This document shows, piece after piece, positions 18,196 to 52,454 of a stretch of DNA of 64,000 bases. Within the stretch, counting starts at the first letter, position 1, and each line of letters begins with the position of its first letter. The stretch lies in the NCBI GenBank assembly GCA_019359235.1, contig JAHHHT010000012.1, positions 3,648 to 67,647 on the forward strand. The letters are read 5' to 3'. The translations under genes and the position numbers were made by a program. The stretch comes from Oscillatoria princeps RMCB-10. GTDB taxonomy: Bacteria; Cyanobacteriota; Cyanobacteriia; Cyanobacteriales; Oscillatoriaceae. The notes under the pieces are model-generated. The model made no database searches, was not told the origin of the DNA, and was given only the letters and a program-made list of their open reading frames with translations.

Positions 18196-18316
18196 TTAGC
18201 CCAACTACAAACTTTAGGGCTAAAGCCCAACTACGAACTTTTGGGCTAAAGCCCAACTACGAACTTTTGGGCTAATACCCAACTACGAACTTTTGGGCTA
18301 AAGCCCAACTACAAAC
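18196..18316. repeat. tandem array (~4.5 copies) of a 27-bp unit ttttGGGCTAAAGCCCaactacgaac, each unit containing the hairpin GGGCT-AAA-AGCCC
   Basis: Seen directly. Single or paired copies of the same unit at 1236-1262, 16653-16680, 33537-33565 (inverted), 46451-46524 (3 tandem copies, inverted). Confidence 0.85.
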
Positions 18317-27598: not shown

Positions 27599-27858
27599 AA
27601 CCGGGCGGATAAGCCGGCAGCCCTAGGGCGCTGGACATTCCTGCGATCGAGAACCCCACCCCCCAACCCCCTCCCCGTAAACGGGGAGGGGGAGCAAGAG
27701 GGGATTACCCTCGTTCGCCGGCGGAGCGGGGGAGATGCCCAAAAGGAGGCTGCGGATATATCTCGCAGGACAGGCGTCTCGCCTGTCCCAATCTGTCCCA
27801 ATCTCCTTGAGAGCGAGCGAGATGACATTTTTTCCAACAGCTGTTAATATACTGCAGA

Positions 27859-30192
27859 GTGCTAAAAAATGGGAACGAAACGTTTCCCCCACCAACCAGC
27901 CAGCCGCCAAGTAAAACCACCCAGTTCAGCCCAATGACGCCCCTAGATTACACCTCAGAAACCCTCCTCGAACAACTTCCCCAGCTGAGTGACGAGCAGC
28001 TGAAACGGGAGTATTTGAATTCCCTGAAATGGACAGAACCCCTAGCGCAGATGTTAGCGCGTGCCGGTTCGGAAGAGCAAGCGCTGCGAGCGGTAAAACT
28101 AGCCCTAGAAGTGGACTGGCAACTGGGCGCAAAGCTAGCAGGAGCGGTCAAACCGGCATTTCAGGCGCAAACTGTAGAGCTAGTTGCTAATTTAGACATT
28201 CCCCAACACCTGAAGCTTAAACTGTTAGGCATCACCCGCTCTGACAGCGCCATCTCACCCGTGGCGCAAGCTTTGAGCGCGGAAGACTACGATATTCGCT
28301 CTAGCGCTGTCGAGGCATTAGGGGAAATCGGCTCAGAGGCGGCGGCGAGCCGGCTGCTGCAAGTTTTGGACTCGGAAAACTCCGGAATTCGCCAGAGCGC
28401 TTTCGAGGCGCTAGGGCAAATTGCCTCGCCAGCAACAGTACCGCTATTGCTGCTCGCCCTCAACGACGAAGACGTAGCAATCAGCGCACTGCTGGCGCTG
28501 GTGAAAATCAGCCCTGAAGCCGGCGCAACAGGATTGCGGCAAGTTTTAAACCATCAAACCGAGGCGGTTCGCCAAGAGGCGAAAAATCTCTTAACCGGCG
28601 GCGAAGAAATCAGCTCTCAGGCGTGGGTGGCGACGCTCGTGCGAGCCCTGAAAGATAGCGATTCAGAAGTTCGCATTTCTGCGGCAGTGGGGCTGCACGA
28701 AATCGGCTACACCTTGCGGAGAACCGGCGACTCGTCTGCAGTGGAACCCCTGATTCAAACTGTGCGCGACGAAAACCCAGAAGTTCGCCGGTGGGCGGCT
28801 GCAGCTTTAGGGCGAATTGGCACCGAAACAGCAGTGCCGGCGCTCATAGAAGCTCTCAGCGATGAAAACCCCAAAGTTCGCAGCTCCGCTGCTAGTGCGC
28901 TGTACGAAACCGGCTCAAGAGCCGCCGCGCCGGCGCTCACCCTAGCCCTGAACGATACCGAGCGTTTGGTTCGCGCTTCCGCTGCAGAAGCCCTCGGCAA
29001 AATTGGCTCCGAATCAGCCGTGCCCGATCTAGTGCGAGCTTTAAACGATGAAAACCATACCGTTCGCGAGAGCGCAGCTTCTGGGCTGGGAAAAATCGCC
29101 ACACAAGCTGCTGTCGAGGCGCTCATTCAAGCCCTCAGCGATCCAACCCCTCACGTTCGCGCCACCGCTGCAGTAGCCTTAGGAGAAACCGGAGCGGAAG
29201 CTGCAGTGCCGGCACTCTTGGAAGCCCTGAAAGACAGAGACTCTCAAGTTCGCGACAGCGCCGCAGTGGCATTAGGAAATATCGGCTCCTCAGAAGCCGT
29301 GCCGGCGCTCGTGCAAACCTTACTCGATGACATCGCTCTCGACTCTGGCTGCGATTTTAAAGTTCGTTCCGAAGCCGCCAAAGCCTTAGGAAAAATCGGC
29401 TCGGAAACCGCTGTGGCAGAACTCGTGCAAGCCTTGAACAACCCAGACGCTTTAGTTCGCGAACTCGCTGCCTATGCTCTGAGAAAAACTGCCACACTGG
29501 TAGCTGCACCGGCACTCCTGCAAGCGCTGAAAGATGAAGACTACCACGTTCGCGCCAGCGCTGCAGTAGCCTTAGGGAATATCGGCTCCGAAACCGCAGT
29601 GCCGGCGCTCATTGAAGCATTCAGCGACGAAAAATGGATGGTTCGTGAAGACGCAGCCGAAGCCGTGGGTAAAATCGGCGCTAAATCCGCAGTGCCGGCA
29701 CTGCAGCAACTTTTGAATGAGGACTCCCCCGAACTTCGCCGCAAGGCGGCTGAAGCCTTAGGGAAAATCGGTTCCGAAACTGCACTTCCCGCCCTGCTTG
29801 AAGCTTTGAGCGACGAACACTATAAGGTGCGTCATGAAGCTGCCGAAGCCTTACAGAAAATCGGCTCCTCTGCAGCTGTAGAAAAACTCCTGCACGCTTT
29901 GACCCACCACAATTCCAGGGTTCGCTGGAAAGCTGCCGAAGCCTTAGGCGAAATTAACTCGATCGCCGCCGTGCCGGCACTGCTGAAAGCCCTCAGCGAT
30001 GACGACTCTGACGTTTGCCGCAGTGCAGCCAAAGCCTTAGGTAAAATCGGCAGCCCTGAAGCTCTGCCGAGTCTGTCCCCACTCCTGCGCAGTGAGAACC
30101 GATTTGTAATTTCCGCCGCGCTCGATGCAATCTCTGCGATTCAAGAGCGTTGCGGTTATTACAATAGCGCCCTGGTAAGCTCGGATTTATGA
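27859..30192 (+). CDS. HEAT-repeat protein (PBS-lyase HEAT-like repeats, ~18 units)
   Basis: Iterated ~31-aa units LxALxDEdxxVRxxAAxALGxIGSExAVPAL throughout; unique ~150-aa N-terminal region. Confidence 0.8.
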   Translation: MLKNGNETFPPPTSQPPSKTTQFSPMTPLDYTSETLLEQLPQLSDEQLKREYLNSLKWTEPLAQMLARAGSEEQALRAVKLALEVDWQLGAKLAGAVKPAFQAQTVELVANLDIPQHLKLKLLGITRSDSAISPVAQALSAEDYDIRSSAVEALGEIGSEAAASRLLQVLDSENSGIRQSAFEALGQIASPATVPLLLLALNDEDVAISALLALVKISPEAGATGLRQVLNHQTEAVRQEAKNLLTGGEEISSQAWVATLVRALKDSDSEVRISAAVGLHEIGYTLRRTGDSSAVEPLIQTVRDENPEVRRWAAAALGRIGTETAVPALIEALSDENPKVRSSAASALYETGSRAAAPALTLALNDTERLVRASAAEALGKIGSESAVPDLVRALNDENHTVRESAASGLGKIATQAAVEALIQALSDPTPHVRATAAVALGETGAEAAVPALLEALKDRDSQVRDSAAVALGNIGSSEAVPALVQTLLDDIALDSGCDFKVRSEAAKALGKIGSETAVAELVQALNNPDALVRELAAYALRKTATLVAAPALLQALKDEDYHVRASAAVALGNIGSETAVPALIEAFSDEKWMVREDAAEAVGKIGAKSAVPALQQLLNEDSPELRRKAAEALGKIGSETALPALLEALSDEHYKVRHEAAEALQKIGSSAAVEKLLHALTHHNSRVRWKAAEALGEINSIAAVPALLKALSDDDSDVCRSAAKALGKIGSPEALPSLSPLLRSENRFVISAALDAISAIQERCGYYNSALVSSDL

Positions 30193-30243
30193 ACCGCCAA
30201 GACGCCAAGAGCGCCAAGTTTTAGAAGGGGAAGCAGCTATCTA

Positions 30244-31896
30244 ATGGAATCTCAAAATTCTCTTGACAAAAACGCCCGGAAACTGCTAGAATGTCTGGCA
30301 GGTGAAAATCGTCTGAGTCGCCGGCGTGCCGCCCGCGCCTTAGCGCAAATCCCCACAGACGCAGCCGTTACCGGGCTGCTGGGAGCGCTCAACTCTCCAG
30401 ACTGGGAGATTCGCGGTTTGGCGGCTTGGGCGCTCGGGCAAATCCGCACCGGCACAGCCATTACCGGCTTGCTGCAAGCCCTCAGCCACCCAGACACTGA
30501 AATTCGCCAGTGGGCGGTTTGGGCGTTGGGGGAAACCGGCACCGGCGCGGCAATTTCTGGGTTGCTGGAAGCCCTCCAGCATCAAGACTCTGAAGTTCGC
30601 TGGCGGGCGGCTTCCGCACTGGGAAAAACCGGCGATTCCGCCTGTATTGCCCCCCTGCAGTCAGCCCTCAGCGATCGGGAGTCAGAAGTTCGCGGAAAAG
30701 CCGCTGCAGCCTTAGGAAAAATCGGCTCTCCCACAGCAGTTGCGGCGCTGCTGCAAGCCCTCAGCGATGACGATTGCGTTCGCTGGAAAGCCGCTTCTGC
30801 CTTAGGGGAAATCGGCTCAGATGAGGCTGTCGCTGGGTTGCTGCAACTGCTCAGCCACCTGGACTCGGAGATTCGCGGACTTGCCATCTGGGCGTTAGGA
30901 AAAATAGGCTCTCAGCCGGCAATTGACGGATTGCTGCACGCGCTCAACAATCCAGATTCCTCTCTGCGCACAAAAGCCGCTGAAGCCCTAGGGGAAATCG
31001 GCAGTGCGCAGGCTGTTCCCGCCCTGCTGCAAGCCCTCAGCGATGCGGACTTTTATGTTCGCTGGAGAGCGGTTTCAGCCTTAGGAGAAATTGGCTCACC
31101 GGCAGCAATTTCCGGACTGCTGCAAGCCCTCGAAGATCAAACCTCCTCAGTTCGCGGCTCAGCCGCTACCGCCTTAGGAAAAATAGGCTCGGAGTCAGCA
31201 ATTCCCGCACTCGCGCGAGCGCTCGACGATGAGAGTTCCTCTGTTTGCCAGAGAGCCGGTGAAGCTTTGAAAAAAATCGCAACCCCAGCCGCACTCGCCG
31301 CACTGCACCCAAATTCTGTTGAAGCTGACAGCAGCGCCCAAGAAGAACAGCAAACCTCCCCTCAGACTATTATAACAGAAGTTCAGAGCGATAAACTGCC
31401 CAAACTATTCATCACCGGCTGTGCGGAAGCCGGCGCTCACATCCTCTGCAAAATAAGAGGGCCATTAATCAAACATCTGATCTCGATAGGCAGCCCGGGC
31501 GTACCGCTCCCCCACGGGTACAGCCAAGTTCCCCACCGGCTGCGGCTGGAATTTAACGACATACACGCGCCCGATAGCGACCCGGAATTAGTTCTGCCCA
31601 CCGTTCAAGATATACTCAAAGTAATAGACTTCGTATCTTCAGTTTCGCAGTTCGACGACCACCTGCTCATCCACTGCCAAGCCGGCATCAGCCGCTCCTC
31701 AGCAGTAGCCTTAACAGTTTGCGCCCACATCCTGGGTGCCGGGAAAGAAAAAGAAGCCCTGGATTACATCCTAGCCGCCAGACCCCAAGCCAGACCTAAC
31801 TGGTGGATAGTAGAATTAGCAGATGAAGCCTTGAATCGAGATGGCCGGTTAGTGCGAGCCATTGAAACCTCAGGCATCTATCCAGGGATAGACTAA
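30244..31896 (+). CDS. HEAT-repeat protein fused to a C-terminal dual-specificity/tyrosine-phosphatase-like domain
   Basis: About 10 HEAT-like units, then DHLLIHCQAGISRSSAVAL, which is an exact HCX5R(S/T) PTP active-site signature, with an upstream Asp-rich loop (HAPDSDPE). Confidence 0.8.
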   Translation: MESQNSLDKNARKLLECLAGENRLSRRRAARALAQIPTDAAVTGLLGALNSPDWEIRGLAAWALGQIRTGTAITGLLQALSHPDTEIRQWAVWALGETGTGAAISGLLEALQHQDSEVRWRAASALGKTGDSACIAPLQSALSDRESEVRGKAAAALGKIGSPTAVAALLQALSDDDCVRWKAASALGEIGSDEAVAGLLQLLSHLDSEIRGLAIWALGKIGSQPAIDGLLHALNNPDSSLRTKAAEALGEIGSAQAVPALLQALSDADFYVRWRAVSALGEIGSPAAISGLLQALEDQTSSVRGSAATALGKIGSESAIPALARALDDESSSVCQRAGEALKKIATPAALAALHPNSVEADSSAQEEQQTSPQTIITEVQSDKLPKLFITGCAEAGAHILCKIRGPLIKHLISIGSPGVPLPHGYSQVPHRLRLEFNDIHAPDSDPELVLPTVQDILKVIDFVSSVSQFDDHLLIHCQAGISRSSAVALTVCAHILGAGKEKEALDYILAARPQARPNWWIVELADEALNRDGRLVRAIETSGIYPGID

Positions 31897-31915
31897 TATC
31901 CAACCTCTTGGCGTC

Positions 31916-33340
31916 TTGGCGTCTTGGCGGTTCATTTCCCTCCCTCCCTCCCTTCCCAAAACTCAAAACTTTTTTTATAATACCAGCAAGGAGAAAGCAG
32001 TTAACATGACAGAGCAACGCGACACCGATTCACCCCCAGCTGATTCCGGACAGTTGGACAAACCGGCGGCTCAGCCCCTGACAGCTGAGTCAGAAGATCA
32101 TTCCCCCGCCAGCCGCATTGCGGGCATCTGGAGAGACGCAACCGCACGCTTGCAGCAACTCATGCCCCTAGAGCAAGTGGGGCAAACAGTTGTAAACTGG
32201 TTTAGCGTTGGCGAAGAGCGGGTTGCAGAGATTTTGGAAACCGTTCGGGCTCAACTGCCCACCACAGAAGCCCTCCTCATTGGCAAACCCCAAGCCGGAA
32301 AAAGTTCCATTGTGCGGGGGATGACAGGAGTTTCTGCTGAAATTGTCGGTCAGGGATTTCGCCCCCACACGCAACATACCGAGCGCTACGCCTATCCGTC
32401 AAAAGACCTGCCCCTGCTGATTTTCACCGATACCGTCGGACTGGGAGATGTCAGCCAGGACACTCAGACCATTATACAGGAACTGTCCGGCAATTTGCAA
32501 CAGCAAACTCGCTGCGCCAGAGTCCTGATTCTCACCGTCAAAATCACTGATTTCGCCACCGGCACACTGCGACAAATTGCCACAGAGTTGCGCCAGAAGT
32601 ATCCCAACATCCCCTGCTTGCTGGCGGTGACGTGCTTGCATGAACTCTATCCTTCCGGCACTGCCGATCATCCCGCTTACCCGCCCGAATATGAGGAAGT
32701 CAGCCGAGCCTTCGCTGCCATTCAAGAAACTTTTGCGGGGCTGTACGATCGGGCTGTCGCCATTGACTTCACCCTGGAAGAAGACGGATACACCCCCGTG
32801 TTTTATGGCTTAGAAGCGCTGAGAGACACCCTAGCAGACTTGCTGCCAGAAGCGGAAGCCGGTGCCATTTACCAGTTATTAGATGAAAAAGCGGGCCGGC
32901 AGCTGAGCGATCTCTACCGAGATGTCGGACGCCGGTACATTTTAGCCTTTTCCATTATGGCAGCCGCCCTAGAAGCCGTGCCGCTGCCACTTGCCAGCAT
33001 GCCGGTGCTAATTGCCTTGCAAATCTCGATGGTGGGTTTGCTGGGGAGACTGTACGGGCAAACACTAACTGTATCGCAAGCAGGAGGAGTTGTCAGCGCA
33101 ATTGCCGGCGGTTTTCTAGCCCGCGCTGTTGGAAGAGAATTAATCAAATTTGTGCCCGGAATAGGCACCGCAATCGCCGCCTCATGGGCGGGTGCGTACA
33201 CCTGGGCGCTCGGCGAAGGTGCCTGCGTGTACTTCGGTGATTTAATGGGGGGCAAGAAGCCAGATACCAAGAGAATTCAGTCCGCAATGCGAGAAGCCTT
33301 CCAGACAGCCAAAGAACGGTTTAAGGAAATCAAACGCTGA
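31916..33340 (+). CDS. HSR1/YfjP-type P-loop GTPase with C-terminal hydrophobic/amphipathic domain (DUF697/YcjF-like)
   Basis: G1 LIGKPQAGKSSIV, G3 FTDTVGLGD; C-terminal ~130 aa rich in Gly/Ala helices (MPVLIALQISMVGLLGRLYG...IAASWAGAYTWALG). Start may be the internal MTEQRD. Confidence 0.7.
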   Translation: MASWRFISLPPSLPKTQNFFYNTSKEKAVNMTEQRDTDSPPADSGQLDKPAAQPLTAESEDHSPASRIAGIWRDATARLQQLMPLEQVGQTVVNWFSVGEERVAEILETVRAQLPTTEALLIGKPQAGKSSIVRGMTGVSAEIVGQGFRPHTQHTERYAYPSKDLPLLIFTDTVGLGDVSQDTQTIIQELSGNLQQQTRCARVLILTVKITDFATGTLRQIATELRQKYPNIPCLLAVTCLHELYPSGTADHPAYPPEYEEVSRAFAAIQETFAGLYDRAVAIDFTLEEDGYTPVFYGLEALRDTLADLLPEAEAGAIYQLLDEKAGRQLSDLYRDVGRRYILAFSIMAAALEAVPLPLASMPVLIALQISMVGLLGRLYGQTLTVSQAGGVVSAIAGGFLARAVGRELIKFVPGIGTAIAASWAGAYTWALGEGACVYFGDLMGGKKPDTKRIQSAMREAFQTAKERFKEIKR

Positions 33341-33776
33341 GCGCTTCTCCCCACCCCGTAGGGTGCCGTTCCGAGCGGGAACGCACCCGAAGAGTTTATT
33401 TACCAAAATTGCTAGTTTCCGGGCGATTAGAAATCGCGGCTATACAGACTTTCGCCCGCCTACGCGGGCTAATATAACATCGATCTTATCAAAATATGCG
33501 CGGTTTTACCTCGTTTCCAAGCTCTGACTTGAAAATGTTTGTAGTTGGGCTTTAGCCCAATCGGCGGGACTCGTAGGGGCGCAGAATTTTCATCGGTGGC
33601 GGTGTGCGCAGTTCCGAAGCGACTGCCTGGAAACTCAGGGAGAAGATGGAGCCGGCGCACAATCTCTTCAATTACAACTTTCAGAATTACTCCTCCTTTA
33701 GATAGGGAGCGAAAACCCATCACAGAAGTGTTACAACTAGCAGTATAACAACTCTAACCCAAACAAGCAAAAGACA

Positions 33777-35693
33777 ATGGTGCGATTAAAACTGTGGCAA
33801 TGGATCGTGCTAGCACTGCCGGTCGCCAGCATCATCATCTTCCTGATGGTAGCAGCGGGGCAGCACATCAACCAGTGGGGCATTAACTGGATCTGGGGGG
33901 TATTCACCCTCGCATTAGTCGGCTGGCGCTGGCTGCTGGTCAAATGGACTCGACCGGCAATAGACCAGGTGGAAGCCCTTGTAGCGCAAGTCAGCAAAGA
34001 AATAGAACCCCCTGCAGACAGTACCGCCGCCCAGCCGGCACCAGATGAGGCTGCAATTAAAGCGCAAACCGCACTCCAAGACATCCTCAAAGCCTCACAA
34101 AACGACCCACCGGCATGGGAAGACTGGCAGACCTTTTGGCAGCGGTGCCAGGAACTTGTGATCGCCATTGCCGGCATCTACTATCCCGAAGATAACTATC
34201 CCCTGCTCAACATTTACGTTCCCCAAGCTTACGCCCTGATTCGGGGAACACTGGACGACTTAGATCGCTGGATGCAAAACTTATCCCCCGCCCTCAATCA
34301 AGTCACAGTTGGGCAGGCATACCAAGCATACGAAGTTTACCGCAAGCTGGAACCCTCCGCTCGCAAACTCTCGCAAGCCTGGAACTGGGCGCAGTGGCTC
34401 CTCAACCCAGCAGCTGCAGTAGCAGCACTGATCAGCCGGCGTTCCAGCAACCGCGCAACTCAGGAACTCGTGGTGAATTTGAGCCAGCTGCTGCGGGAAG
34501 CAGCCCTGCGCAACCTGTGCCGGCAGGCGATTGCCCTCTACGGAAGCCGCACCCTGCCGGCGGCTGCATTTTCCACTCCCGCACCGGCACTGGCTTTAGT
34601 CAAAACCCAAACCCTCCGAGACATCCTCGAACAAGCCGAACCCGTCGAAACAGTTGAGCAAAAACCCGTCACTATTCTGATTGCGGGGCGAACCGGCGCT
34701 GGCAAAAGCAGCCTGATTAACACCCTATTTCAAGCAGATCGCGCAGCGGTCGATGTTTTGCCCAGCACCGAGCGGATTGAAAATTACCGCTGGCAAACTG
34801 AAACTGGAGAAAGCCTGACCCTCTTGGATACCCCCGGTTACGAACAAGTCAACCGTGCGGATTTGCGGGAATTAGTGCTTGATTGCGCCAAAAGCGCCGA
34901 TTTGTTGCTATTAGTCAACCCAGCCGGCGATCCCGCCCTGCAAATGGATGTAGACTTTCTCAAAGATATCAAAACACAAGTTACAGATTTACCCGCACTC
35001 GCCATTGTTACCCAGGTAGATCGCCTGCGTCCAGTACGCGAATGGCAGCCCCCTTACGACTGGGTTTGGGGCGATCGCCCCAAGGAAAAAGCCATTCGGG
35101 AAGCCACCCAGTATCGCGCTCAACTCCTCGGCGAGTTTTGCCAGCGAGTTTTGCCGGTCGTCACCGGCGACAGTAAAGCCGGTCGAGTCGCCTGGAATGC
35201 CGACGTCCTGTCATTAGCGCTGCTAGAAGAGATCGCGCCGGCTAAACAGCTCCGCCTCGCCCGCTTTTTGCGCCATCTGGACGCCCGCACCGCCGCCGCC
35301 GCCAAAATCATCGACCGCTACACCTTCCAAATGGCCACAACCCAAGGCGTGACCGCACTGCTCAAAAGTCCCGTCCTCCAGTTTCTCAGCACACTCTCCA
35401 CCGGCTCTCCCACCCTAGCCTATCTGCTCGCAGAGAAAATTCCCGCCGAACAGTTGCCGGTGGTTATTGGCAAACTCCAGATGGCTTATGAGCTGTTCTC
35501 GCTGTTTAACACAGACGATTCTAGCCCGCTCAACTTTGACCTGCGCTCCCTCTGGCCACTTCTGCAGGAAAACTCCGCCTCACCCGACCGCAATGCCTCC
35601 GCATTTGGTCACGCCCTAGTGGAGTTCTGGACTCAAAATCTCACAGTTGAGCAACTCCGGGAGCGCTTTGAATACTATCTCAAGCACGTTTAA
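33777..35693 (+). CDS. membrane-anchored HSR1/YfjP-type GTPase (2 N-terminal TM helices, central G domain, ~250-aa C-terminal domain)
   Basis: TM: WIVLALPVASIIIFLMVAA and IWGVFTLALVGWRWLLV; G1 ILIAGRTGAGKSSLINTLF, G3 LLDTPGYEQ, G4-like VTQVD. Confidence 0.75.
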   Translation: MVRLKLWQWIVLALPVASIIIFLMVAAGQHINQWGINWIWGVFTLALVGWRWLLVKWTRPAIDQVEALVAQVSKEIEPPADSTAAQPAPDEAAIKAQTALQDILKASQNDPPAWEDWQTFWQRCQELVIAIAGIYYPEDNYPLLNIYVPQAYALIRGTLDDLDRWMQNLSPALNQVTVGQAYQAYEVYRKLEPSARKLSQAWNWAQWLLNPAAAVAALISRRSSNRATQELVVNLSQLLREAALRNLCRQAIALYGSRTLPAAAFSTPAPALALVKTQTLRDILEQAEPVETVEQKPVTILIAGRTGAGKSSLINTLFQADRAAVDVLPSTERIENYRWQTETGESLTLLDTPGYEQVNRADLRELVLDCAKSADLLLLVNPAGDPALQMDVDFLKDIKTQVTDLPALAIVTQVDRLRPVREWQPPYDWVWGDRPKEKAIREATQYRAQLLGEFCQRVLPVVTGDSKAGRVAWNADVLSLALLEEIAPAKQLRLARFLRHLDARTAAAAKIIDRYTFQMATTQGVTALLKSPVLQFLSTLSTGSPTLAYLLAEKIPAEQLPVVIGKLQMAYELFSLFNTDDSSPLNFDLRSLWPLLQENSASPDRNASAFGHALVEFWTQNLTVEQLRERFEYYLKHV

Positions 35694-43151: not shown

Positions 43152-43320
43152 GATATAGCAGCAGTCATATTGGTTAGGACATCAGTGACCTAGGGAAAAA
43201 GGCGTAGGACAGGCGTTCCCTCCGATAGCGAAGCGGGACGCGACAGCGTCCTTCCCAGAGACCTTGAGGGCAGGCGAGACGCCTGCCCTACGCCTATACC
43301 TCGCAGGACAGGCGCTCCCA
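43152..43320. mobile_element. MITE family member (GATATAGCAGCAG left TIR; right end degenerate)
   Basis: Shares TIR and internal cgtaggacaggcgttccctccg / gggacgcgacagcgtcct blocks with 2031-2232. Confidence 0.5.
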
Positions 43321-43449: not shown

Positions 43450-46245
43450 TTACTGCCGGGAGCCAATCCCCTCGCACAACAGCCGGTCGCTTTCTGGGAC
43501 ATTGGGGTTGTTCTGCAGGTAGTTGCGCAGCCAATTGCAGGGGCGATCGAGCAGCTTGTCGGAATTCATTTGAGCCATGCGGCGCATTTCATAGAGAGAT
43601 TCCAGGTTCCAGAGGATCGCGGTGCTGTCAGCGGAACCCGATGCTAGGGTTTGGCCATCAGGCGACCAAGCGACCGCCCTCACCCAGTCGCCGTGCTGTT
43701 CCAGCGCTGCCAGCAACTGGCCATCCAAATCCCAGAATTTCACAGAATCGTCTTCAGCCACCGTGGCAATCATCTGGCCATCTCGACTGAAGCTCACCTG
43801 CCAAACCCCACCGGTAAACCCTTTTATCGCTGTCAGTTCTGTACCGTCCAGGTTCCAGAGTTTGACGATTTTGTCAGCACCGGCAGAGGCAATCGTCTTG
43901 CCATCCGGACTGAAACTGACACTATTCACCCGATTCGTGTGCCCGACAAAAGTCTTCACCGGCGTGCCGTCTTTGCGCCAGAGCTTCACCGTGCTGTCAC
44001 CGCCGGCAGTCGCAATCAGCTCTCCATTCGGCGAAAAACTGACATCATTAACCTCCGCGTCCTTGTGCGCCTCAACAGTGATTATCTCCGGGCTATTCAC
44101 ACCCCAAAGTTTCACAGTGCCGTCAGCGCTAGCCGAGGCGAGCGTTTCCCCATCGGGCGAGAAACTGACGCTCTTCACCGCAGAAAAATGGCCTTGCAGG
44201 GTTTCCGGCGTATCCCGCTGCAGGTCCCACAGCAGCACCTTGCCGTCATAACCGGCAGTGGCAACCCTGTTCCCGTCGGGTGAGAAACTCACATCTGTGA
44301 CCGGGGTGTCACTCTTGAGCGTTCGCCGCAGCGTGCCGTCGGCAACCCGCCAAACCAGCGCCACACTGTCCGCGCCGCCGGTGGCGAGAAATTTCCCATC
44401 CGGGCTGAAACTGACGCTTTTGACGCTGGCAGTGTGCCCTTGCAGGATGTCGCGCACCGCGCCTTTCAAGCTGCGAAGGCGAATAATTTTATCAGCACCG
44501 GCACTGGCGATTTCTGGCTGCTTGGCGTCGGGCGAGAAACGGACGCTCTTCACACTGCCTTTGTGCTCCAGAAAAGTTTGCAGCAACTTGCCGTCAGCGC
44601 TCCAGAGTTTGACCGTTTTGTCATCGCTGGCGGTGGCAATCGTCTTGCCGTCGGGGGAGAAACTGACGCTATTCACCCAACTGGTGTGGGAAGCGAGGAT
44701 TAGCAGGAGAGTGCCGTCAGTATCCCACAATTTCACCGTACCGTCACGGCTGGCTGAGGCAATTGTTTTGCTATCCGGGGAAAAGCTGACATCGAGCACT
44801 CTGCCGTCATGCGCCTGCAGCAGTTTTTCCAGCTTACCTCTCAAGTTCCAGAATCTGACAGTTCTGTCGGAGCCGCCGGTAACAATTCTGCGCCCATCGG
44901 GGCTGAAACTGAGGGCGGTAACAGCACCGACATGCGCTTCTATATTTGCCACCGGCGTGCCGTCGGAAGTCCACAGGATCAGCTGCCCGTCTGCGGTGCC
45001 GGCGGCTATCAGCTGCCCGTCAGGACTGAACGCCACGTTTAAAACATCCGCTTCCCGCTGGAGGATTTTGATTTCAGTTCCGTCTGGGTTCCAGAGTTTC
45101 ACCGTTCTGTCGGCGCAGACGGTGGCTAAAGTCTGCCCGTCGGGCGACCAGGCGACATAGCGGACTCTGTCCCGATGCGGTAAAGTGGCTTCCAGTGTGC
45201 CGTCTGCGCGCCAGATTTTTGCCGTGCTGTCCTCACTGGCGGAGGCAATCAGCTGGCCATCGGGGGAGAAGCTCAGCCCAGTGACAGTATCGGTGTGCCC
45301 TTCCAGCCGGTTGCGCTCGCTGGTTGTGTTCATGGCCACCACCAGGCTTTGCAAAGTCCGGTCGCGAACGGCTGGGGAGATGCCGGTTTGCACTTTCAGC
45401 TGTTGGGCGGCTTTCACCGCCCACAGCAGCGCCTCAAGCCCGTCGTTAGCTTGCAGCCGCTCTTGAGACAGGGCGCTCAAGGCGCTGATGTAGTTTTCTC
45501 CAGTTCGGGAGCGCTGCTGTTCCGTATCGGGGGGCTGCCGTTCCCTGTCCTGCCGGCTAGCGAGGGAGGCTTGGTACTGGCTGAAAGCCAGTCCCGCCAG
45601 CACAGCGGTGAGCAAGCAGCCCCCAGCGAGAGCGGCGAGCCCTGCGCCCAGGAACTTGATTTTGGCTCGGGCGCTGGCGGTGATGTACTGAATTTGCAGT
45701 GGTGTGGGAGATGGCTCTTTGGCTTCGCTCTGGATCAGCCATTCCTCAGCTTCTTTTAAATCCTTGCCGTTTAATAAAAAGTTGGGGTCGCGCTTTTCGC
45801 TGTCCCACTCCAGGGCCCGCACCAGCAAGCGCGTGTGGGCCCGCACATAGTTTTGGTCGGCATCGACAGCGCTGAGCAAGGTAGAAAAGGCGCTGTGGAA
45901 ATCCCCATTTTCTGGAAAGGGAATCGGGTTGACAGCGAGAAGGGCGGGATGCACCTTTGAAGGGGGAGTCTGCCGGTACATCACCGGGATCAGCCGTTTG
46001 TGGCAGTTGAGCGCGTGGGCAATCTCCTCCTGACAGGCTTCGCAGAACGCGGAATCGGGAGAGATGATGAAGATGAAATTGTTTGCCGCTTCGATACCGG
46101 CAAGCATGTCTTTGCGCCACTCCGGCGTCAGCGGAGTGTTCTGCCAGTAGGCGTTGACCTCGCGGCTGTTTTGCAGGAACGCTTCGTAGAGTTTTTTGAC
46201 GAACTCCAAATCCTCGTGCGAGTGGGAAATATAAACCTCTGCCAT
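43450..46245 (-). CDS. TIR-domain / single-TM / WD40-repeat (~14 blades) protein
   Basis: N-terminus VYISHSHEDLEFVKKLYEAFLQ...FIFIISPDSAFCEACQEEIAHAL (TIR fold); hydrophobic AGLAALAGGCLLTAVLAGLAF; then 14 GH...WD-type repeats (GHTDTVTGLSFSPDGQLIASASEDSTAKIW...). Confidence 0.85.
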   Translation of the reverse strand: MAEVYISHSHEDLEFVKKLYEAFLQNSREVNAYWQNTPLTPEWRKDMLAGIEAANNFIFIISPDSAFCEACQEEIAHALNCHKRLIPVMYRQTPPSKVHPALLAVNPIPFPENGDFHSAFSTLLSAVDADQNYVRAHTRLLVRALEWDSEKRDPNFLLNGKDLKEAEEWLIQSEAKEPSPTPLQIQYITASARAKIKFLGAGLAALAGGCLLTAVLAGLAFSQYQASLASRQDRERQPPDTEQQRSRTGENYISALSALSQERLQANDGLEALLWAVKAAQQLKVQTGISPAVRDRTLQSLVVAMNTTSERNRLEGHTDTVTGLSFSPDGQLIASASEDSTAKIWRADGTLEATLPHRDRVRYVAWSPDGQTLATVCADRTVKLWNPDGTEIKILQREADVLNVAFSPDGQLIAAGTADGQLILWTSDGTPVANIEAHVGAVTALSFSPDGRRIVTGGSDRTVRFWNLRGKLEKLLQAHDGRVLDVSFSPDSKTIASASRDGTVKLWDTDGTLLLILASHTSWVNSVSFSPDGKTIATASDDKTVKLWSADGKLLQTFLEHKGSVKSVRFSPDAKQPEIASAGADKIIRLRSLKGAVRDILQGHTASVKSVSFSPDGKFLATGGADSVALVWRVADGTLRRTLKSDTPVTDVSFSPDGNRVATAGYDGKVLLWDLQRDTPETLQGHFSAVKSVSFSPDGETLASASADGTVKLWGVNSPEIITVEAHKDAEVNDVSFSPNGELIATAGGDSTVKLWRKDGTPVKTFVGHTNRVNSVSFSPDGKTIASAGADKIVKLWNLDGTELTAIKGFTGGVWQVSFSRDGQMIATVAEDDSVKFWDLDGQLLAALEQHGDWVRAVAWSPDGQTLASGSADSTAILWNLESLYEMRRMAQMNSDKLLDRPCNWLRNYLQNNPNVPESDRLLCEGIGSRQ

Positions 46246-46450: not shown

Positions 46451-46524
46451 GTTTGTAGTTGGGCTAAAGCCCAAAAGTTCGCAGTTGGGCTAAAGCCCAA
46501 AAGTTCGCAGTTGGGCTAAAGCCC
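46451..46524. repeat. 3 tandem copies of the GGGCTAAAGCCC-containing 27-bp unit (inverted relative to 18196-18316)
   Basis: gtttgtagttgggctaaagcccaaaagttcgcagttgggctaaagcccaaaagttcgcagttgggctaaagcccc. Confidence 0.85.
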
Positions 46525-47585
46525 CATACCGCCGGCACGAGCCGGCAACCCCACACCCCCTAGTCCCCAAACCCCCTACCCCTTACTCCCCGATCTCGCT
46601 CACGGGGCTGATGAGACCGGCTGCAGGAACTGGATGCGACGAACTCAGCTGAGCGTACAGGCTGTCAGGGAAGCGGCAAACTTGATAGAAATTTCCCTAA
46701 AGTTGCCACAGTCTGAAACATTATATAGCGCCTCCTATACCTTCGTGTAAATTTCAGAACCCCGGTTTCTTAAAGAAACCGGGGTTCTGGGCCCCAGCGG
46801 TTGCGGAAATCATTTCTAACTGCTATAATAGAATTTGCTGTCGTAGGGAACGCCATCTAAAGTTCAATCTACACGCAACACTTTTGGCTAGTATCCTGGC
46901 GATTGGAAAGATGCTGTTGGCGAATTAACGGGGGGTTAGACCTACAGCTAGTTCGTCGGCGATTAGCCAAGTTACTGGCGATTGGAAAGAGACTGTTGGC
47001 GAATTGATGTGGGGGCTTACACCCTACGCCTTCTTTTGGGGGCAGGTTGTTCGGTTGTAGCTAGCGCTAGGGGAAGGGCGAAGCATGAGCGGATGTAATC
47101 TTTTCACCGATTGCAAATATCCTCGCGCTCATGCTTCGCCCCTACATCGGATCTTGTGTAGGGGCGAAGCATTGGCGGCGCGGATCTTTACGACTGCGCC
47201 CGAAATAACGCGCTTCGCCAATGCTTCGCCCTCTTTACTTACGAGCGAGAAGGTCTAACCCCTCACGGAGAGCGCCAACAGCATCTTGAAAATCGCGGCT
47301 ATACAGACGAAGCCCGCCTACCCAACGGGCACGGGCTTCGCCCAACGCGGGCTAAGAGTGGAGCGAGACTCTCACAATTTGCGGGGTTTCTCCTCGTTTG
47401 GTGCTCACCGGCTCACACTATTGTGATTTCACTTTTTCTTTATAAATCACCTGCCCACCGGCTCTCTCTTTCGGTAGAATTTATTGGCGGGCTCTGGCAA
47501 ATGTAGCCTGAGATACAGCCCGTTCAATCAATATGAGCTATAATCATAGAAGCCGGCGCAAACAGGCGTTGCAGATGTGTGGGAT

Positions 47586-47822
47586 GAACCCCACCCCCCA
47601 ACCCCCTCCCCGTGTACAAGGAGGGGGAGTAAGGCGGGGTTTTGGTACAGTGGAAAAAGTCTCATCGTCCTTGTACTGTGCGACGCCCGCAAACAGACCA
47701 TCACCGGCTCGTTGATAAAACTTTGTTCGCCCCTAACCTCTCGCACCAGATTTCAAGAACCCCAGCCCGCATCTTCCCCCTCCCCGCTAGCGGGGAGGGG
47801 GCTAGGGGGTGGGGTTCCCCGC
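47586..47822. repeat. two copies of the GC-rich palindromic element (GAACCCCACCCCCCAACCCCCTCCCCG-loop-GGAGGGGGAG; second copy carries both arms including GGGGGTGGGGTTC)
   Basis: 47586-47640 and 47757-47822, just upstream of the NDH-2 gene; spurious small ORFs in the track overlap them. Confidence 0.6.
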
Positions 47823-49481: not shown

Positions 49482-52454
49482 TTATCTGGGCCACCATCGG
49501 GTGAGCCGGCTGAGGATGGATGGGCGATTGTGCCAAGCCTGATAAAACTCCGGGTAGGGCATAGTTTGGGCGCAGTGCCAGATGAGTTTGTAGCACTCCA
49601 GGAACCGCCTATAGAATCGCCTATAGTTTATGATTAAGCTTATAAATGATAACTCATCTTTCAAGGCTGTGACAACTTCTGCAAATTGATTGTCTCGGAG
49701 GATTTTCTTCAAGCTTTCTGCCGTTCGCTTGCGGGTGTCTTCATCCTGAGCTGACTTGATGAGTCGCACTAACCCCCGGATGGCTGTTTGATTGCCGATG
49801 CCAATTTTCCCTAAGCTATATGTTGCTTTTCTGCGGGTGTCTTCATCCGGAGCGAAATCGATGAGTCTCACTAACCCCTCGATGGCTGTTTGACTGCCTG
49901 GGTCAATTTCCCCTAAGCTTTCTGCCGCGAGCCAGCGGGTAAATTTATCCTCAGCTGACTCGACGAGTCCCTTTAACGCCCGGATTGCTTTTTGGCTGCC
50001 AGGGTCAATTTTCCCTAAGCTTTCTGCCGCTTTACAGCGGATAAAATCATACTGCTCTGATTTGATGATCTGCTCTAACGCCCGAATAGCTGTTTTACTG
50101 CCAGTGCCAATTTTACCTAAGCTTTCTGCCGCGAGCCAGCGGGTGCCTTCATTTTGATGTGACTCGAAAACTCGCACTAACGCCAGGATTGCTGTTTCAC
50201 TGTCTGGATGAATTATCCCTAAGTTTTCTGCCGCAATCCTGCGGGTTAATTCATCCTGATCTGAATCGATGAGTCGCATTAACCCCGTGATGGCTGTTTG
50301 ATTGCTGGTGCCAATTTTCCCTAAGCTATATGCCGCTTCTATACGGGTTAATTCATCCTGATCTGACTCGGTGAGTCGCACTAACCCCCGGATTGCTGTT
50401 TCACTGCCAGTGCCAATTTTTCCTAATGTATATGCTATTTCCCAGGGGGGAAATTCATCCTGTTCCGACTCGATGAGTCGCACTAACTCCTGGATGGCTG
50501 TTTCGTTGCCAGGGTCAATTTCCCCTAAGCTTTCTGCTGCTTCCCAGCTGGTGTGCTCACCCTGAACTGACTCAATGACTGGCCCTAACGCCCGGATGAC
50601 TGTGTAGTTTTCAATGTGCCATAAGCTTTCTGCCGCTCGCCTGCGGGTATATTCACCTTGAGCTGACTCGATGACTCGCTCTAACCCCCGGATGGCAGTT
50701 TCACTGCCGGGGTCAATTTTCCCTAAGCTATATGCCGCTCGCCAGCGGGTGTCTTCATCCTGAGCTGACTCGATGACTCGCACTAACGGCTCAATTGCCC
50801 TGTTGCGATCCGTCTCTAGTAAGGCAGCTTTAGCTCCCTCCTTAACCGGCTCGACAAAATCGCCAAAACCCCACTTGACAATCTGCTCCGCAATCTCCTG
50901 ACTCCACCGGCAATCCTTAAACTCGGCAATCCCAGCTGCGGCTAGGAAATACGCCCGATACTCATAAAACCCCCTGCCGATTTGTTCCATTCCAGAGAAT
51001 TTGCCACACCCATCCTTAAACTCCACCAGCGCTTTGATAAACGCCTCTTTCCGCTCCTTGGCCACATCCTCTCGCCCCAGCCAGAGCAAAATCACCTGCT
51101 TCCACTGGGCTGAAAAAATGCGGTAGGTGAGATCCCCCCAACTCTTCTTGGAAAGGGGGGCATTCAACCCCCCCTTTTTAAGGGGGGGCAGGGGGGGATC
51201 TTGATGATTCAGGAAAAAGCGCCAGTCATCTATCGCCAGCGCGGCGAAGTATTCCTGAAACGTGGTATGGTAGAAAGCGTAAACAGCTTCATCGGGACTT
51301 TCTGCCGCCAAGCCCACTTTGTTCAGCCAAGCCAGTTTAGTAACCGCCAGCTCATAAAGTTCTTCTCCCGGCTGCCCCAGGAAACGACAAACCCAACTGT
51401 GCTTGAGCCGGAACCGAGACTCCTTTTGGTCAATCGCCCACTTTGCCAACTCCCCAAGCTTCCGATTCAAATCTCTTCGCTGATTGGGGGTAATTGGAAA
51501 TTCCTTCTGTTTCCAATCATAGAACTTCTCCACAAATCCCTTGTAGAGTTTCGCCCGCGTATCTGGCAATCCCCCACGCTCTTGCCACAAACTCCAAGTT
51601 CCGCACAGCAGCGCCAACCGCAGGGGATTTTTCGCCAGATCCTTAATCCGCTCTTTGCCCGGTTCGTCTAGCGCCCGCCGCAACTTTTGCCCTAACTCTG
51701 GCTCGCGCCCAAACCACTTGGCGATCAACTGCCCCACTTGATCCGGATAACTAAATTCCAAACTGCGATAAATCTCAAATGTGTCCGCCAGCACATTGCG
51801 GTTGGCATCCCAGACATTCAGCCGGCAAGTCAGCACCACCCGCGCCGGCGCTATCCAGCCCCTGAGCTGGCTTTCGATAGCCGAGAGCGGTTCTCCTCCC
51901 ACCGGCATCTCATCCACCGCATCCAGCAGCAACCACACCCGCCCCTGCTTGCACAGCTGTTTGAACGCCGTTTTCAGCGCTTCCGTCACTTCCACCAGTT
52001 CCGGCAAATGCGCCAGCGCCGCTTTCAGCCATTTACTCAGTAAATACTCCTCCAGAAACTCCTGCTTAGAAGTAACCGCCGGCAAATCTGCCAGAGAAAT
52101 CAAAACCGGCAAATCCTCCGTAGTGTCAGACAGCCAAAACGCAATTTTGCGCAACAGGGTGGATTTTCCCGCCCCCGGTTCCCCAATAATAGCGATCCGC
52201 TTGCCCTTGCTTTTCCCTGTCCCCTTTTCCAGGACATCGCGCAAAAACTGCTCGTGCTCAAACCGCTGCTTTTCCTCGTATGCCGGCTCGTACAGGCGCG
52301 ATCCCCGCTCTGCCGAAATCTCCTCATTCGGCTTCTTCTCCTGTTTTTTGCGCTCCACCAATGCCAGCGGCACATGGATTTGGTCGATATCCAAATCTGT
52401 CCCGTGGTTGTGCAGAAGCGCATTGACAGTCAGCTTTTTCTCAGCCGCCAGCAT
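49482..52454 (-). CDS. NACHT-domain STAND NTPase with C-terminal HEAT-repeat array
   Basis: Walker A IAIIGEPGAGKSTLLRKIA; Walker B LLLDAVDE; downstream ~12 PBS-lyase HEAT-like units (DEDTRWRAAYSLGKIDPGSETAIRGL...). Confidence 0.8.
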   Translation of the reverse strand: MLAAEKKLTVNALLHNHGTDLDIDQIHVPLALVERKKQEKKPNEEISAERGSRLYEPAYEEKQRFEHEQFLRDVLEKGTGKSKGKRIAIIGEPGAGKSTLLRKIAFWLSDTTEDLPVLISLADLPAVTSKQEFLEEYLLSKWLKAALAHLPELVEVTEALKTAFKQLCKQGRVWLLLDAVDEMPVGGEPLSAIESQLRGWIAPARVVLTCRLNVWDANRNVLADTFEIYRSLEFSYPDQVGQLIAKWFGREPELGQKLRRALDEPGKERIKDLAKNPLRLALLCGTWSLWQERGGLPDTRAKLYKGFVEKFYDWKQKEFPITPNQRRDLNRKLGELAKWAIDQKESRFRLKHSWVCRFLGQPGEELYELAVTKLAWLNKVGLAAESPDEAVYAFYHTTFQEYFAALAIDDWRFFLNHQDPPLPPLKKGGLNAPLSKKSWGDLTYRIFSAQWKQVILLWLGREDVAKERKEAFIKALVEFKDGCGKFSGMEQIGRGFYEYRAYFLAAAGIAEFKDCRWSQEIAEQIVKWGFGDFVEPVKEGAKAALLETDRNRAIEPLVRVIESAQDEDTRWRAAYSLGKIDPGSETAIRGLERVIESAQGEYTRRRAAESLWHIENYTVIRALGPVIESVQGEHTSWEAAESLGEIDPGNETAIQELVRLIESEQDEFPPWEIAYTLGKIGTGSETAIRGLVRLTESDQDELTRIEAAYSLGKIGTSNQTAITGLMRLIDSDQDELTRRIAAENLGIIHPDSETAILALVRVFESHQNEGTRWLAAESLGKIGTGSKTAIRALEQIIKSEQYDFIRCKAAESLGKIDPGSQKAIRALKGLVESAEDKFTRWLAAESLGEIDPGSQTAIEGLVRLIDFAPDEDTRRKATYSLGKIGIGNQTAIRGLVRLIKSAQDEDTRKRTAESLKKILRDNQFAEVVTALKDELSFISLIINYRRFYRRFLECYKLIWHCAQTMPYPEFYQAWHNRPSILSRLTRWWPR

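Follow-up and report, generated by a model that had tools for sequence, protein, structure and literature searches.

The open reading frame that we analyzed occupies positions 43450 to 46245, on the minus strand, of a 64,000-nucleotide window of the Oscillatoria princeps RMCB-10 genome; all the features of the gene given below lie on that strand. It lies where the initial annotation had put it and is a frame of 931 amino acids that begins with ATG; the ORF list gives it as complete, with its stop codon, and a JGI contig of 8.6 Mb is already known to encode an identical protein. The domain order is TIR domain, helical linker, transmembrane (TM) helix, helical spacer, 14 WD40 blades and a Cys-bearing tail, and the full-length AF2 model of the protein has a mean pLDDT of 92.8. 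The succession of TIR domain, TM helix and some 14 WD40 blades that had first been read from the sequence was borne out by the match to Pfam TIR_2, a single hydropathy peak and 14 occurrences of PF00400. The absence of an NTPase was also borne out, as residues 1–317 match TIR families alone in Pfam and residues 129–313 are modeled as all-helical by AF2; a central P-loop NTPase (NACHT, NB-ARC, or nSTAND) was found in neither of these two stretches. The protein combines an N-terminal effector (the TIR domain) with a C-terminal repeat sensor (the 14 blades), as do STAND/Avs/NLR-like receptors. Our literature searches found no paper on TIR-TM-WD40 proteins.

The TIR domain comprises residues 1–128 (45862 to 46245) and has the flavodoxin-like TIR fold. 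Pfam TIR_2 (PF13676) matches residues 4–124 with E=1.2e-16 and 61.7 bits, the curated gathering cutoff being 28 bits, and model positions 1–122 of 122 are covered. The initial annotation had suggested that a catalytic glutamate lies within CEACQEE, and our alignment to known NADase TIRs places it at E74 (codon at 46024 to 46026), in the motif A70-C71-Q-E-E74-I. This residue falls in the same column as the catalytic Glu of AbTir (WTEYE), SARM1 (HKE642), and Cat1 (CWDE), and both E74 and C71 are invariant in 87 of 87 relatives as well as in all three orthologs; S7, P63, and K83 are likewise invariant among the 87. Judged from its sequence, the TIR domain is probably an NAD-cleaving enzyme. The tryptophan of the WxxxE motif is absent: position 70, four residues before E74, is Ala in the 931-aa protein and V or I in the family, where the most frequent residues among the 87 relatives are V (44), I (11), P (8), T (5), and N (5). 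This Trp is reported to be needed for the production of cADPR isomers and to be less conserved where TIRs make non-cyclic products or function without catalysis (PMC11374754). Because the family is without it, the product is likely to be plain ADP-ribose, with depletion of NAD+, and not a cyclic-ADPR signal, a prediction that agrees with there being no gene for a partner effector. The domain diverges at six positions that are kept in 78–85 of the 87 relatives (F5Y, Y8H, R10H, W31N, D33Y, and S68C), and it scores 61.8 bits, against E=7e-51 for the top-scoring relative. By sequence comparison, it is a derived, divergent member of its family. Positions 31, 33, and 68 differ even between the three orthologs, which suggests relaxed constraint around the pocket and the base of the BB loop.

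Next to the TIR domain lies a conserved helical linker, or juxtamembrane adapter (residues 129–197; 45655 to 45861), with the motif VRAHTRLLVRALEW...LLxG.DL.EAE.WL...PT.LQ..YI.AS. Among the 87 relatives W147 is invariant and H137, T138, L140, A144, G160, and E167 are conserved in at least 90%; the AF2 model places its helices at 131–149, 160–175, and from 182 onward, with pLDDT values of 95–98. We found no counterpart of the linker in Pfam, NCBIfam, or the PDB. Its HMM matches all 264 of 264 TIR-family proteins, and the TIR+linker unit is present in more than 8,500 protein clusters. The motif also occurs just before the TM helix, without a TIR domain, in 25 of 120 WD40-array relatives, in the form W...LLRG.xL.xAe.W...FI.aS, and it precedes the TM helix in nSTAND1/AAA-type WD40 proteins too. 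The single TM helix that follows (residues 198–221, FLGAGLAALAGGCLLTAVLAGLAF; 45583 to 45654), rich in small-xxx-small patterns, was located by Kyte-Doolittle hydropathy, with a 19-residue maximum of 2.17 at about 198–221 and no second segment above 1.6. It consists of 24 uncharged residues in a row with charged residues on both flanks, it lies within one unbroken helix of the AF2 model (182–236), and the window 198–222 shares 24/25 and 23/25 identities with the two orthologs. Beyond the membrane segment, the full-length AF2 model shows a helical spacer (residues 222–313; 45307 to 45582), which has no Pfam match and contains helices at 241–265, 269–285, and 291–307 with pLDDT values of 86–96. 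The core of the TM helix is at residue 203 and the first blade motif at 326; the median spacing from TM helix to first blade is 109 aa in the relatives (99 of 120 WD40-array relatives).

The 14 WD40 blades extend over residues 314–888 (43582 to 45306), as delimited by PF00400 (14 stretches, E=4e-154), a blade table and the AF2 model, in which the region has 56 beta-strands. Direct delineation gives a blade spacing of 40–43 aa, and the mean identity between blades is 39%. A phmmer comparison with PDB entry 2YMU (Npun_R6612 WRAP) returned 48% identity and E=4e-237, and the blades are predicted to form two 7-bladed propellers. The protein ends in a helical tail (residues 889–931; 43453 to 43581; AF2 helices 882–921) with two conserved Cys, C.WLRNYLQNNPNVPESDRLLC, which was recognized by comparison with the family member P0119 and the orthologs; a similar Cys-tail motif is found in 45 of the 120 WD40-array relatives. 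Pfam NCC-H, with which the neighboring NACHT-HEAT protein terminates, was considered for this tail and rejected, as the tail does not match it. We did not count the two cysteines as a sign of a disulfide in the periplasm.

Full-length orthologs with about 91% identity are present in Oscillatoria sp. PCC 10802 and in an Oscillatoria MAG, and no blade has been gained or lost between these close orthologs. Syntenic orthologs occur in 2 close Oscillatoria genomes, and none was present at 55 further aspartate-kinase loci of cyanobacteria whose flanks were long enough; the gene is therefore lineage-specific and not core. The initial annotation had reasoned that orthologs conserved in a core housekeeping context would speak against an immune role, and such a context does exist at the genus level (2 Oscillatoria) but at 0 of the 55 other aspartate-kinase loci. 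The whole-gene dN/dS is 0.23, which denotes purifying selection and is similar to that of the neighboring genes. By segment, the lowest value is that of the linker and TM helix (0.07), followed by the WD40 array (0.20) and the TIR domain (0.27), and the post-TM spacer is the fastest-evolving internal segment (0.57). The dN/dS analysis, WD40 array included, gave no sign of diversifying selection, and when viral contigs were scanned with the family profile, no relatives turned up.

Within about 10 kb the gene is accompanied by genes for an aspartate kinase, an SDR, LprI, NDH-2, a NACHT-HEAT protein, and a histidine kinase. None of the annotated neighbors is a partner of the ThsA-like (SIR2/SLOG/Macro), STING, SAVED, or Argonaute kind, nor does any nearby gene qualify as a candidate TIR partner, and the gene is not in a defense island; the 64-kb window does hold apoptosis-like genes, namely the NACHT-HEAT gene, a caspase, and a calpain-like protease. 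Neither PADLOC nor NCBIfam assigned a system or family to the full protein or to its N-terminal 230 aa. The best ThsB match in PADLOC is weak (E=3e-4, 18.7 bits), ThsB_TIR PF08937 scores 15.9–18.3 bits, under its cutoff of 21.2, and the match to the PADLOC candidate model HEAT-ARM_XIII is driven by the WD40 blades. Membership of Thoeris was rejected on account of the sub-threshold ThsB scores and the lack of ThsA. PADLOC, proposed at the outset as a check, thus recognized no system, and the protein's proposed candidacy as an antiphage or cell-death effector found no direct support, given the weak ThsB match alone in PADLOC, the housekeeping neighbors, the lack of viral relatives, and purifying selection. 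The dense repeats and MITEs said to flank the gene proved real in part: an element at 47586–47817, with 43-nt inverted repeats at its ends, is an insertion missing from the ortholog locus of Oscillatoria PCC 10802, and a 26-nt tandem repeat lies at 46451–46528, with related copies at 18210–18310, but the 123-nt periodic repeats within the ORF are merely the WD40 units. In the gene flanks, searches for Rfam families (E up to 1) and for tRNAs detected nothing relevant, and a promoter/terminator scan stayed at background level and so did not bear on co-transcription with the aspartate kinase.

With one TM helix, the membrane would separate the TIR domain from the WD40 array. To orient them, we compared the charges that flank the helix. 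A TM helix follows the linker in 214 of 266 TIR-family proteins, and in these 214 the mean number of K+R is 4.61 before and 2.33 after it, with more K+R before the helix in 181 vs 10 proteins (Wilcoxon p=3e-30). In WD40-array relatives, which mostly carry other heads (n=84), the corresponding figures are 75 vs 5 (p=8e-14). A TM-like segment stands at equal spacing ahead of the array in 99 of the 120 closest WD40 arrays and is missing in the other 21. This family-wide positive-inside asymmetry would place the TIR domain in the cytoplasm, and for the family as a whole it argues strongly for an N-in/C-out topology with the WD40 array outside. The flanks of the Oscillatoria protein itself have 3 vs 3 K+R and a net charge of +3 vs +1, a weak bias, and we infer the same N-in/C-out topology for it. 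Some members of the family have CHASE2 or SH3_3 after the TM helix instead of WD40 blades; both are typically extracytoplasmic domains. In single-pass Ser/Thr kinases, the kinase is cytoplasmic and the WD40/TPR arrays are predicted to be periplasmic (PMC11032199). The analogy to STAND/Avs proteins drawn at first holds for the order of effector and repeats, but a single TM helix separates the WD40 array from the TIR domain and would bar direct gating; the Oscillatoria protein thus appears to be a receptor-like bitopic protein and not an Avs-type cytosolic sensor, and it is better likened to Toll-like receptors or to the kinase-TM-WD40 receptors of Planctomycetota and cyanobacteria (PMC11032199).

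The explanation that we favor, and to which we give somewhat less than an even chance, is that the protein may be a type II (N-in/C-out) bitopic receptor in which ligand-induced clustering turns on NAD+ hydrolysis by the TIR domain, leading to growth arrest or death. The TIR domain and the helical adapter would be cytoplasmic, and the spacer, the two 7-bladed propellers, and the Cys-bearing cap would be periplasmic. A periplasmic ligand, such as a phage or competitor component, a product of envelope damage or a signal that spreads through the filament by diffusion, would bind the propellers, and the receptor would then oligomerize or pack differently. This change would travel through the small-xxx-small-rich TM helix and the stiff, unbroken juxtamembrane helix until it reaches the adapter, and the TIR domains so brought together would build composite active sites around E74, whose hydrolysis of NAD+ would arrest the growth of the affected cell or kill it. 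For the Oscillatoria protein we infer the NADase activity, the ligand-induced clustering, and the role in conflict or cell death; the near-symmetric charge around its TM helix, its derived TIR domain, and the lack of a defense context speak against this receptor/NADase reading.

The same receptor topology could serve a TIR domain that is a non-catalytic assembly or adaptor module of the TLR/MyD88 type, which would recruit TIR or effector proteins or hold the oligomer together. The missing WxxxE tryptophan is compatible with such a domain as well. We nevertheless consider it unlikely, as E74 and C71 do not vary among the 87 relatives, which are diverse, or the three orthologs, position 8 is His and position 10 is not Arg in the proven NADase AbTir too, the dN/dS of the TIR domain indicates that constraint persists, and there is no candidate TIR partner gene nearby. 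Alternatively, the protein might be a sensor of normal physiology, responding to envelope status or to an intercellular cue in the periplasm of the filament and modulating NAD+-derived metabolites or signaling, with no immune or suicide role. The aspartate kinase, SDR, and NDH-2 genes next to it would suit this possibility, as would the stable synteny, full-length conservation, unchanged blade number, and neighbor-like dN/dS in close relatives, the presence on the same linker-TM-WD40 chassis of kinase and NTPase heads, which are typical of signal transduction, and the occurrence in relatives of CHASE2, a signaling sensor domain. Yet the gene is missing at the 55 other aspartate-kinase loci, which implies that there is no conserved physiological function at that site, the prokaryotic TIR enzymes characterized in the literature that we consulted act in conflict or cell death, and the window contains the NACHT-HEAT, caspase, and calpain-like protease genes, so we regard a purely physiological role as improbable.

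It is very unlikely, in our estimate, that the hydrophobic helix is no membrane span or a mere anchor and that the TIR domain and the WD40 array are both cytoplasmic, forming an NTPase-less, Avs-like soluble sensor. WD40 arrays of a like type do sense in Apaf-1-like STANDs, which are cytosolic, and both the 21 arrays without a TM-like segment and the nearly symmetric flanks of the Oscillatoria protein would be consistent with it. Against it stand the uninterrupted run of 24 uncharged residues between charged flanks, with its hydropathy of 2.17, the very strong asymmetry across the family, and a TM helix whose place is kept by 99 of the 120 relatives and by 214 of the 266 TIR-family proteins; moreover, one span cannot put both large domains on the same side.

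In a broader sense, the Oscillatoria protein and its thousands of relatives could be a modular class of bacterial transmembrane pattern-recognition receptors for immunity or cell death, of an origin independent of animal TLRs and working from the outside in, with interchangeable heads (TIR, nSTAND1, AAA-like, kinase) and no NTPase switch, a proposal that we find possible but doubtful. Under this proposal, a ligand in the periplasm would be detected by the two WD40 propellers outside the cytoplasm, and the unnamed adapter would relay the signal to the TIR NADase. In the literature that we consulted, the characterized prokaryotic TIR immune proteins sense their trigger inside the cell, directly or via STAND, STING, SAVED, Argonaute, or CARF components. 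If the proposal is true, a TIR domain wired through one TM helix to extracytoplasmic repeats would let a trigger outside the cytoplasm deplete NAD+ and would be functionally the nearest bacterial analog of a Toll-like receptor. The conserved linker is a candidate signal-transmission module common to several receptor heads. The cells of a cyanobacterial filament are believed to have one periplasm in common, and such a receptor would be relevant to the containment of infection or damage along the filaments of these multicellular organisms. Should the TIR domain lack activity or the WD40 array lie in the cytoplasm, the protein would be one more member of the large uncharacterized TIR/WD40 repertoire of cyanobacteria with big genomes.

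Among known proteins, the Oscillatoria protein belongs to an uncharacterized family of ‘TIR domain-containing proteins’ from cyanobacteria, Chloroflexi, and other groups that have the TIR domain, the linker, and the TM helix in common. Its named relatives are P0119 (944 aa), P0301 (933 aa), and P0309 (from Oscillatoria sp. FACHB-1407), the first two of which also carry the WD40 array; P0119, 38% identical over the full length and 48% over the N-terminal 317 aa, has the Cys tail too. In many other relatives the TIR+linker unit occurs 2–7 times in tandem, or the WD40 blades are replaced by TPR, SH3_3, or CHASE2. Compared with SARM1/TIR-1 and AbTir, the Oscillatoria TIR is without the WxxxE Trp and the post-betaB Asp, and its control would come from a TM receptor, whereas SARM1 uses ARM-SAM and AbTir a coiled coil. 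In Thoeris ThsB, TIR-STING, TIR-SAVED, SPARTA TIR-APAZ, Cat1, and TIR-STAND/Avs, a TIR domain is also joined to a sensor, and activation by oligomerization is common; the Oscillatoria protein has no ThsA, STING, SAVED, APAZ/Argonaute, CARF, or NTPase module, and, unlike in these antiphage systems, its sensor would sit across the membrane. Toll-like receptors have the same layout of a repeat ectodomain for the ligand, one TM helix, and a cytoplasmic TIR that acts on clustering, but they are type I proteins with LRRs and a C-terminal TIR that recruits adaptors, whereas the Oscillatoria protein would be a type II protein with WD40 propellers, an extra helical adapter, and an N-terminal TIR that is probably an enzyme. 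The likeness is an analogy, with no sign of common descent of the architecture. The closest solved structure is that of Npun_R6612 WRAP (PDB 2YMU), in which 14 blades form two 7-bladed propellers; its blades are nearly identical, pointing to recent amplification, while those of the Oscillatoria protein are 39% alike. The single-pass Ser/Thr kinase-TM-WD40/TPR receptors of Planctomycetota, Myxobacteria, and cyanobacteria (PMC11032199) have a kinase head in place of the TIR domain, and the nSTAND1/AAA-like-TM-WD40 proteins of cyanobacteria set a P-loop NTPase head on the same TM-spacer-WD40 chassis; the 14-blade array of the Oscillatoria protein is 40–47% identical to kinase-, nSTAND1-, and AAA-like-TM-WD40 proteins.

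The open reading frame at 43450..46245 (-) begins with an ATG and encodes a protein of 931 aa, identical to one already on record (JGI contig). Pfam places TIR_2 at residues 4-124 (61.7 bits against a cutoff of 28, E=1.2e-16) and 14 stretches of WD40 across the C-terminal two thirds (E=4e-154); by manual delineation, residues 314-888 form 14 blades with a spacing of 40-43 aa, and the 123-nt direct-repeat families within the ORF are these blades themselves. The sole hydrophobic segment is found at residues 198-221 (FLGAGLAALAGGCLLTAVLAGLAF), where the Kyte-Doolittle 19-residue maximum reaches 2.17, all others being at most 1.6. Since residues 1-317 match TIR families only in Pfam, and the model shows residues 129-313 as entirely helical, we conclude that an NTPase is absent. 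The ORF, the Pfam matches, the hydropathy profile and the model thus bear out the layout proposed in the initial annotation, a TIR domain, a transmembrane (TM) helix and about 14 WD40 blades with no NTPase. The full-length AF2 model (pLDDT 92.8) contains 56 strands, that is, 14 four-stranded blades, preceded by a three-helix spacer (residues 241-307) and followed by a helical tail (882-921). Its nearest solved structure is 2YMU, with which it shares 48% identity (phmmer E=4e-237, Foldseek E=4e-62). In 2YMU, a WRAP domain from Npun_R6612 of Nostoc punctiforme, 14 blades build two 7-bladed propellers (bioRxiv 10.1101/723619). Unlike those of WRAP, the blades of our protein are old and diverged (mean pairwise identity 39%). 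The closest arrays, at 40-47% identity, belong to cyanobacterial proteins of ~1,150-1,240 aa whose annotations read AAA-like, nSTAND1 or 'WD40 repeat protein', and the heads among these relatives include a few TIRs, one kinase and one NACHT. A TM-like segment precedes the first blade in 99 of the 120 closest arrays, at a median distance of 109 aa, which is also the spacing in our protein.

A single TM span would place the TIR and the WD40 array on opposite sides of the membrane, and there is no signal peptide, as the TIR begins at residue 4. Single-pass kinase-TM-WD40/TPR proteins offer a parallel, with the kinase predicted to be cytoplasmic and the repeats periplasmic (PMC11032199). Among 214 TIR-family proteins with a TM following the linker, K+R in the 15 flanking residues averages 4.61 before the TM vs 2.33 after it (181 vs 10, p=3e-30), and 84 WD40-array relatives, with mostly other heads, split 75 vs 5 (p=8e-14); the query itself has near-even K+R on its two flanks (3 vs 3), though an uneven net charge (+3 vs +1). 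Relatives carry CHASE2 and SH3_3 after the TM, both typically extracytoplasmic domains, and NAD+ is located in the cytoplasm. Taken together, the family charge asymmetry, the post-TM domains, the location of NAD+ and the kinase-receptor parallel support an N-in/C-out arrangement, in which the TIR and its linker would be cytoplasmic and the WD40 array periplasmic.

The linker itself (residues 129-197) is helical and strongly conserved, with the motif VRAHTRLLVRALEW...LLxG.DL.EAE.WL...PT.LQ..YI.AS, and has no counterpart in Pfam, NCBIfam or PDB. In the AF2 model it forms, at pLDDT 95-98, helices at 131-149 and 160-175, and a further helix runs from 182 unbroken through the TM to residue 236. A linker HMM matches 264/264 TIR-family proteins. 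Multi-TIR relatives have their own copy after each TIR, three TIR+linker units being the commonest arrangement (103 of 150 representatives), and the motif also stands directly before the TM helix of TIR-less nSTAND1-/AAA-type WD40 proteins (25/120); judged by this distribution, the linker is a separable adapter. In P0296, P0327, P0330, P0340 and other database relatives with an nSTAND1/AAA_16 head and WD40, RLR....W.....D.GALLRGA.L.EAE.WL......E.EFI.ASR lies just ahead of the TM; the P-loop NTPase head and the repeat sensor would there sit across the membrane from each other, an unusual arrangement for STAND proteins.

Searched exhaustively with HMMER, residues 1-317 matched 8,554 representative clusters at E<=1e-3, and 2,313 when the limit was set at E<=1e-30. 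A scan of viral contigs with the family profile turned up no relative. The named relatives come from cyanobacteria, Chloroflexi/Anaerolineae and Chthoniobacterales, are labelled just 'TIR domain-containing protein', and the family carries WD40, TPR, SH3_3 or CHASE2 after the TM. By sequence, our protein is an ordinary member of the TIR_2 superfamily and of this huge, uncharacterised TIR+linker family. Two relatives, P0119 (944 aa) and P0301 (933 aa), have the same TIR-linker-TM-WD40 layout, and P0119 also has the tail motif C.W...YL.NNPNV...D..LC of our protein. Most of the top-scoring representatives (P0009-P0158) have three (range 2-7) tandem TIRs, each with its own linker, ahead of TM-WD40 or TM-CHASE2, with seven TIR_2 stretches in the 1773 aa of P0009; this tandem layout hints that TIR oligomers are built into the single chain.

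The gene is followed on the same strand by an aspartate kinase, an SDR and LprI, and upstream lie, divergently, NDH-2 and then a NACHT-HEAT-NCC-H STAND protein. The adjoining aspartate kinase shares 94-95% identity with its counterparts in two Oscillatoria MAGs and in Oscillatoria sp. PCC 10802, which points to a large filamentous cyanobacterium from this lineage as the source. Syntenic full-length orthologs of the TIR gene, ~91% identical and without indels in the WD40 array, are present in PCC 10802 (931 aa) and in one of the MAGs (936 aa). We fetched 80 cyanobacterial aspartate-kinase loci. In 57 of them the upstream sequence extends for 3.3 kb or more, and among these the TIR gene was present at only two, PCC 10802 and one MAG. 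Hence it is lineage-specific at this site, yet stable and functional, and the orthologs in a housekeeping context that would have spoken against the initial annotation occur only at genus level. Against PCC 10802 its overall dN/dS is 0.23 (aspartate kinase 0.13, NDH-2 0.26), with 0.27 for the TIR, 0.57 for the spacer, 0.20 for the WD40 array, 0.75 for the tail and, lowest of all, 0.07 for linker+TM, where constraint on the gene is strongest. In the array, substitutions between orthologs follow the positions that are variable from blade to blade (rho 0.50, p=9e-4) and reach their highest density in blades 8-9, with no sign of diversifying selection at this depth.

The 990-aa NACHT-HEAT protein (49482-52454, -), two genes away from the TIR gene and ending in an NCC-H motif (Pfam), is strain-variable, as PCC 10802 keeps in the syntenic place just a 111-aa C-terminal remnant (48% identity). 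Compared with PCC 10802, the intergenic region between the TIR gene and NDH-2 is a patchwork. Just upstream of NDH-2, a ~230-bp element (47586-47817) has G/C-rich inverted repeats of 43 nt (GAACCCCACCCCCCAACCCCCTCCCCG...) at its ends; since the PCC 10802 locus is contiguous across this point, the element is a genuine MITE-like insertion. Four copies of GGGCGAAGCAT(G/T)(A/G)GCG in alternating orientation (47076-47231) form nested hairpins within this 1.6-kb non-coding stretch, the only place in the window where they occur. Upstream of the TIR gene (46451-46528), a 26-nt unit with a palindromic core (AGTTGGGCTAAAGCCCAAAAGTT) is repeated in tandem, in just under three copies, and has relatives in an intergenic region 28 kb away (18210-18310), where none is expected by chance. 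On the other side, a ~110-bp segment between the TIR gene stop and the aspartate kinase (43153-43261) is missing from PCC 10802 and overlaps short inverted repeats (43200-43216/43279-43295). Elsewhere in the window, a same-strand run (23441-35693, +) encodes a 1385-aa AAA_16 + FHA protein, a 777-aa HEAT-repeat protein, a HEAT + dual-specificity-phosphatase protein and two GTPases (MMR_HSR1 and dynamin/septin-like), and may represent a conflict system centred on NTPases/GTPases, such as have been described in multicellular bacteria. There are also a 754-aa caspase-domain (Peptidase_C14) protein (61010-63274, +), an 891-aa protein with a calpain-like C2 peptidase domain (18332-21007, -) and a 1625-aa ORF to which Pfam assigns nothing (6804-11681, +).

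The best-supported reading, which we favour only tentatively, is that of a bitopic receptor: a ligand bound by the periplasmic propellers would change how the receptor packs, and the change would reach the adapter by way of the TM helix, which is rich in small-xxx-small motifs, and of the rigid juxtamembrane helix. The TIR domains would then be brought together so that active sites form around E74, the Glu at the catalytic position, with NAD+ hydrolysis leading to cell arrest or death. Such clustering-induced activation is established for SARM1, plant TIRs, AbTir, TIR-STING, TIR-SAVED and SPARTA. The TIR is a derived member, scoring far below its relatives and substituted at six sites conserved in 78-85 of 87 sequences (F5Y, Y8H, R10H, W31N, D33Y and S68C), of which 31, 33 and 68 also vary among the three orthologs. 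In AbTir, a proven NADase, position 8 is likewise His and position 10 likewise not Arg, but Asp is retained at 33, unlike in our protein. The position of the WxxxE Trp is V/I throughout the family and Ala here; this Trp is reported to be necessary for cADPR-isomer formation and less conserved in TIRs with non-cyclic products or without catalysis (PMC11374754). Given the missing Trp, the derived TIR and the partial match to AbTir, NADase activity is plausible but not assured and, if present, simple NAD+ hydrolysis is more likely than signal synthesis. That the TIR is instead a non-catalytic scaffold seems to us unlikely.

That the receptor serves physiological signalling and not immunity is equally improbable. 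The TIR gene, proposed as a candidate antiphage or cell-death effector, is part of no system recognised by PADLOC. Identity with ThsB was rejected on scores under threshold and the lack of a ThsA, and identity with STAND/Avs/NLR proteins on the lack of an NTPase. The initial annotation is confirmed in the domain layout and partly supported in its interpretation; a soluble Avs-like sensor is very unlikely, the TM evidence speaking against it. Published work covers bacterial TIR-NBD-WD40/TPR proteins and the TIR effectors that multicellular bacteria have in their conflict systems (PMC9153377, PMC7159879, PMC8195603, PMC10907252), and we found no description of a TIR-TM-WD40 receptor in the searchable literature. 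The interest of the proposed bitopic receptor lies in its receptor-like topology and common adapter, both predicted computationally. Its linker-TM-spacer-WD40 chassis is common to kinase-, nSTAND1- and AAA-headed cyanobacterial receptors, and its layout resembles, as an analogy only, that of Toll-like receptors, with WD40 in place of LRR, the polarity reversed and a TIR that is probably enzymatic.
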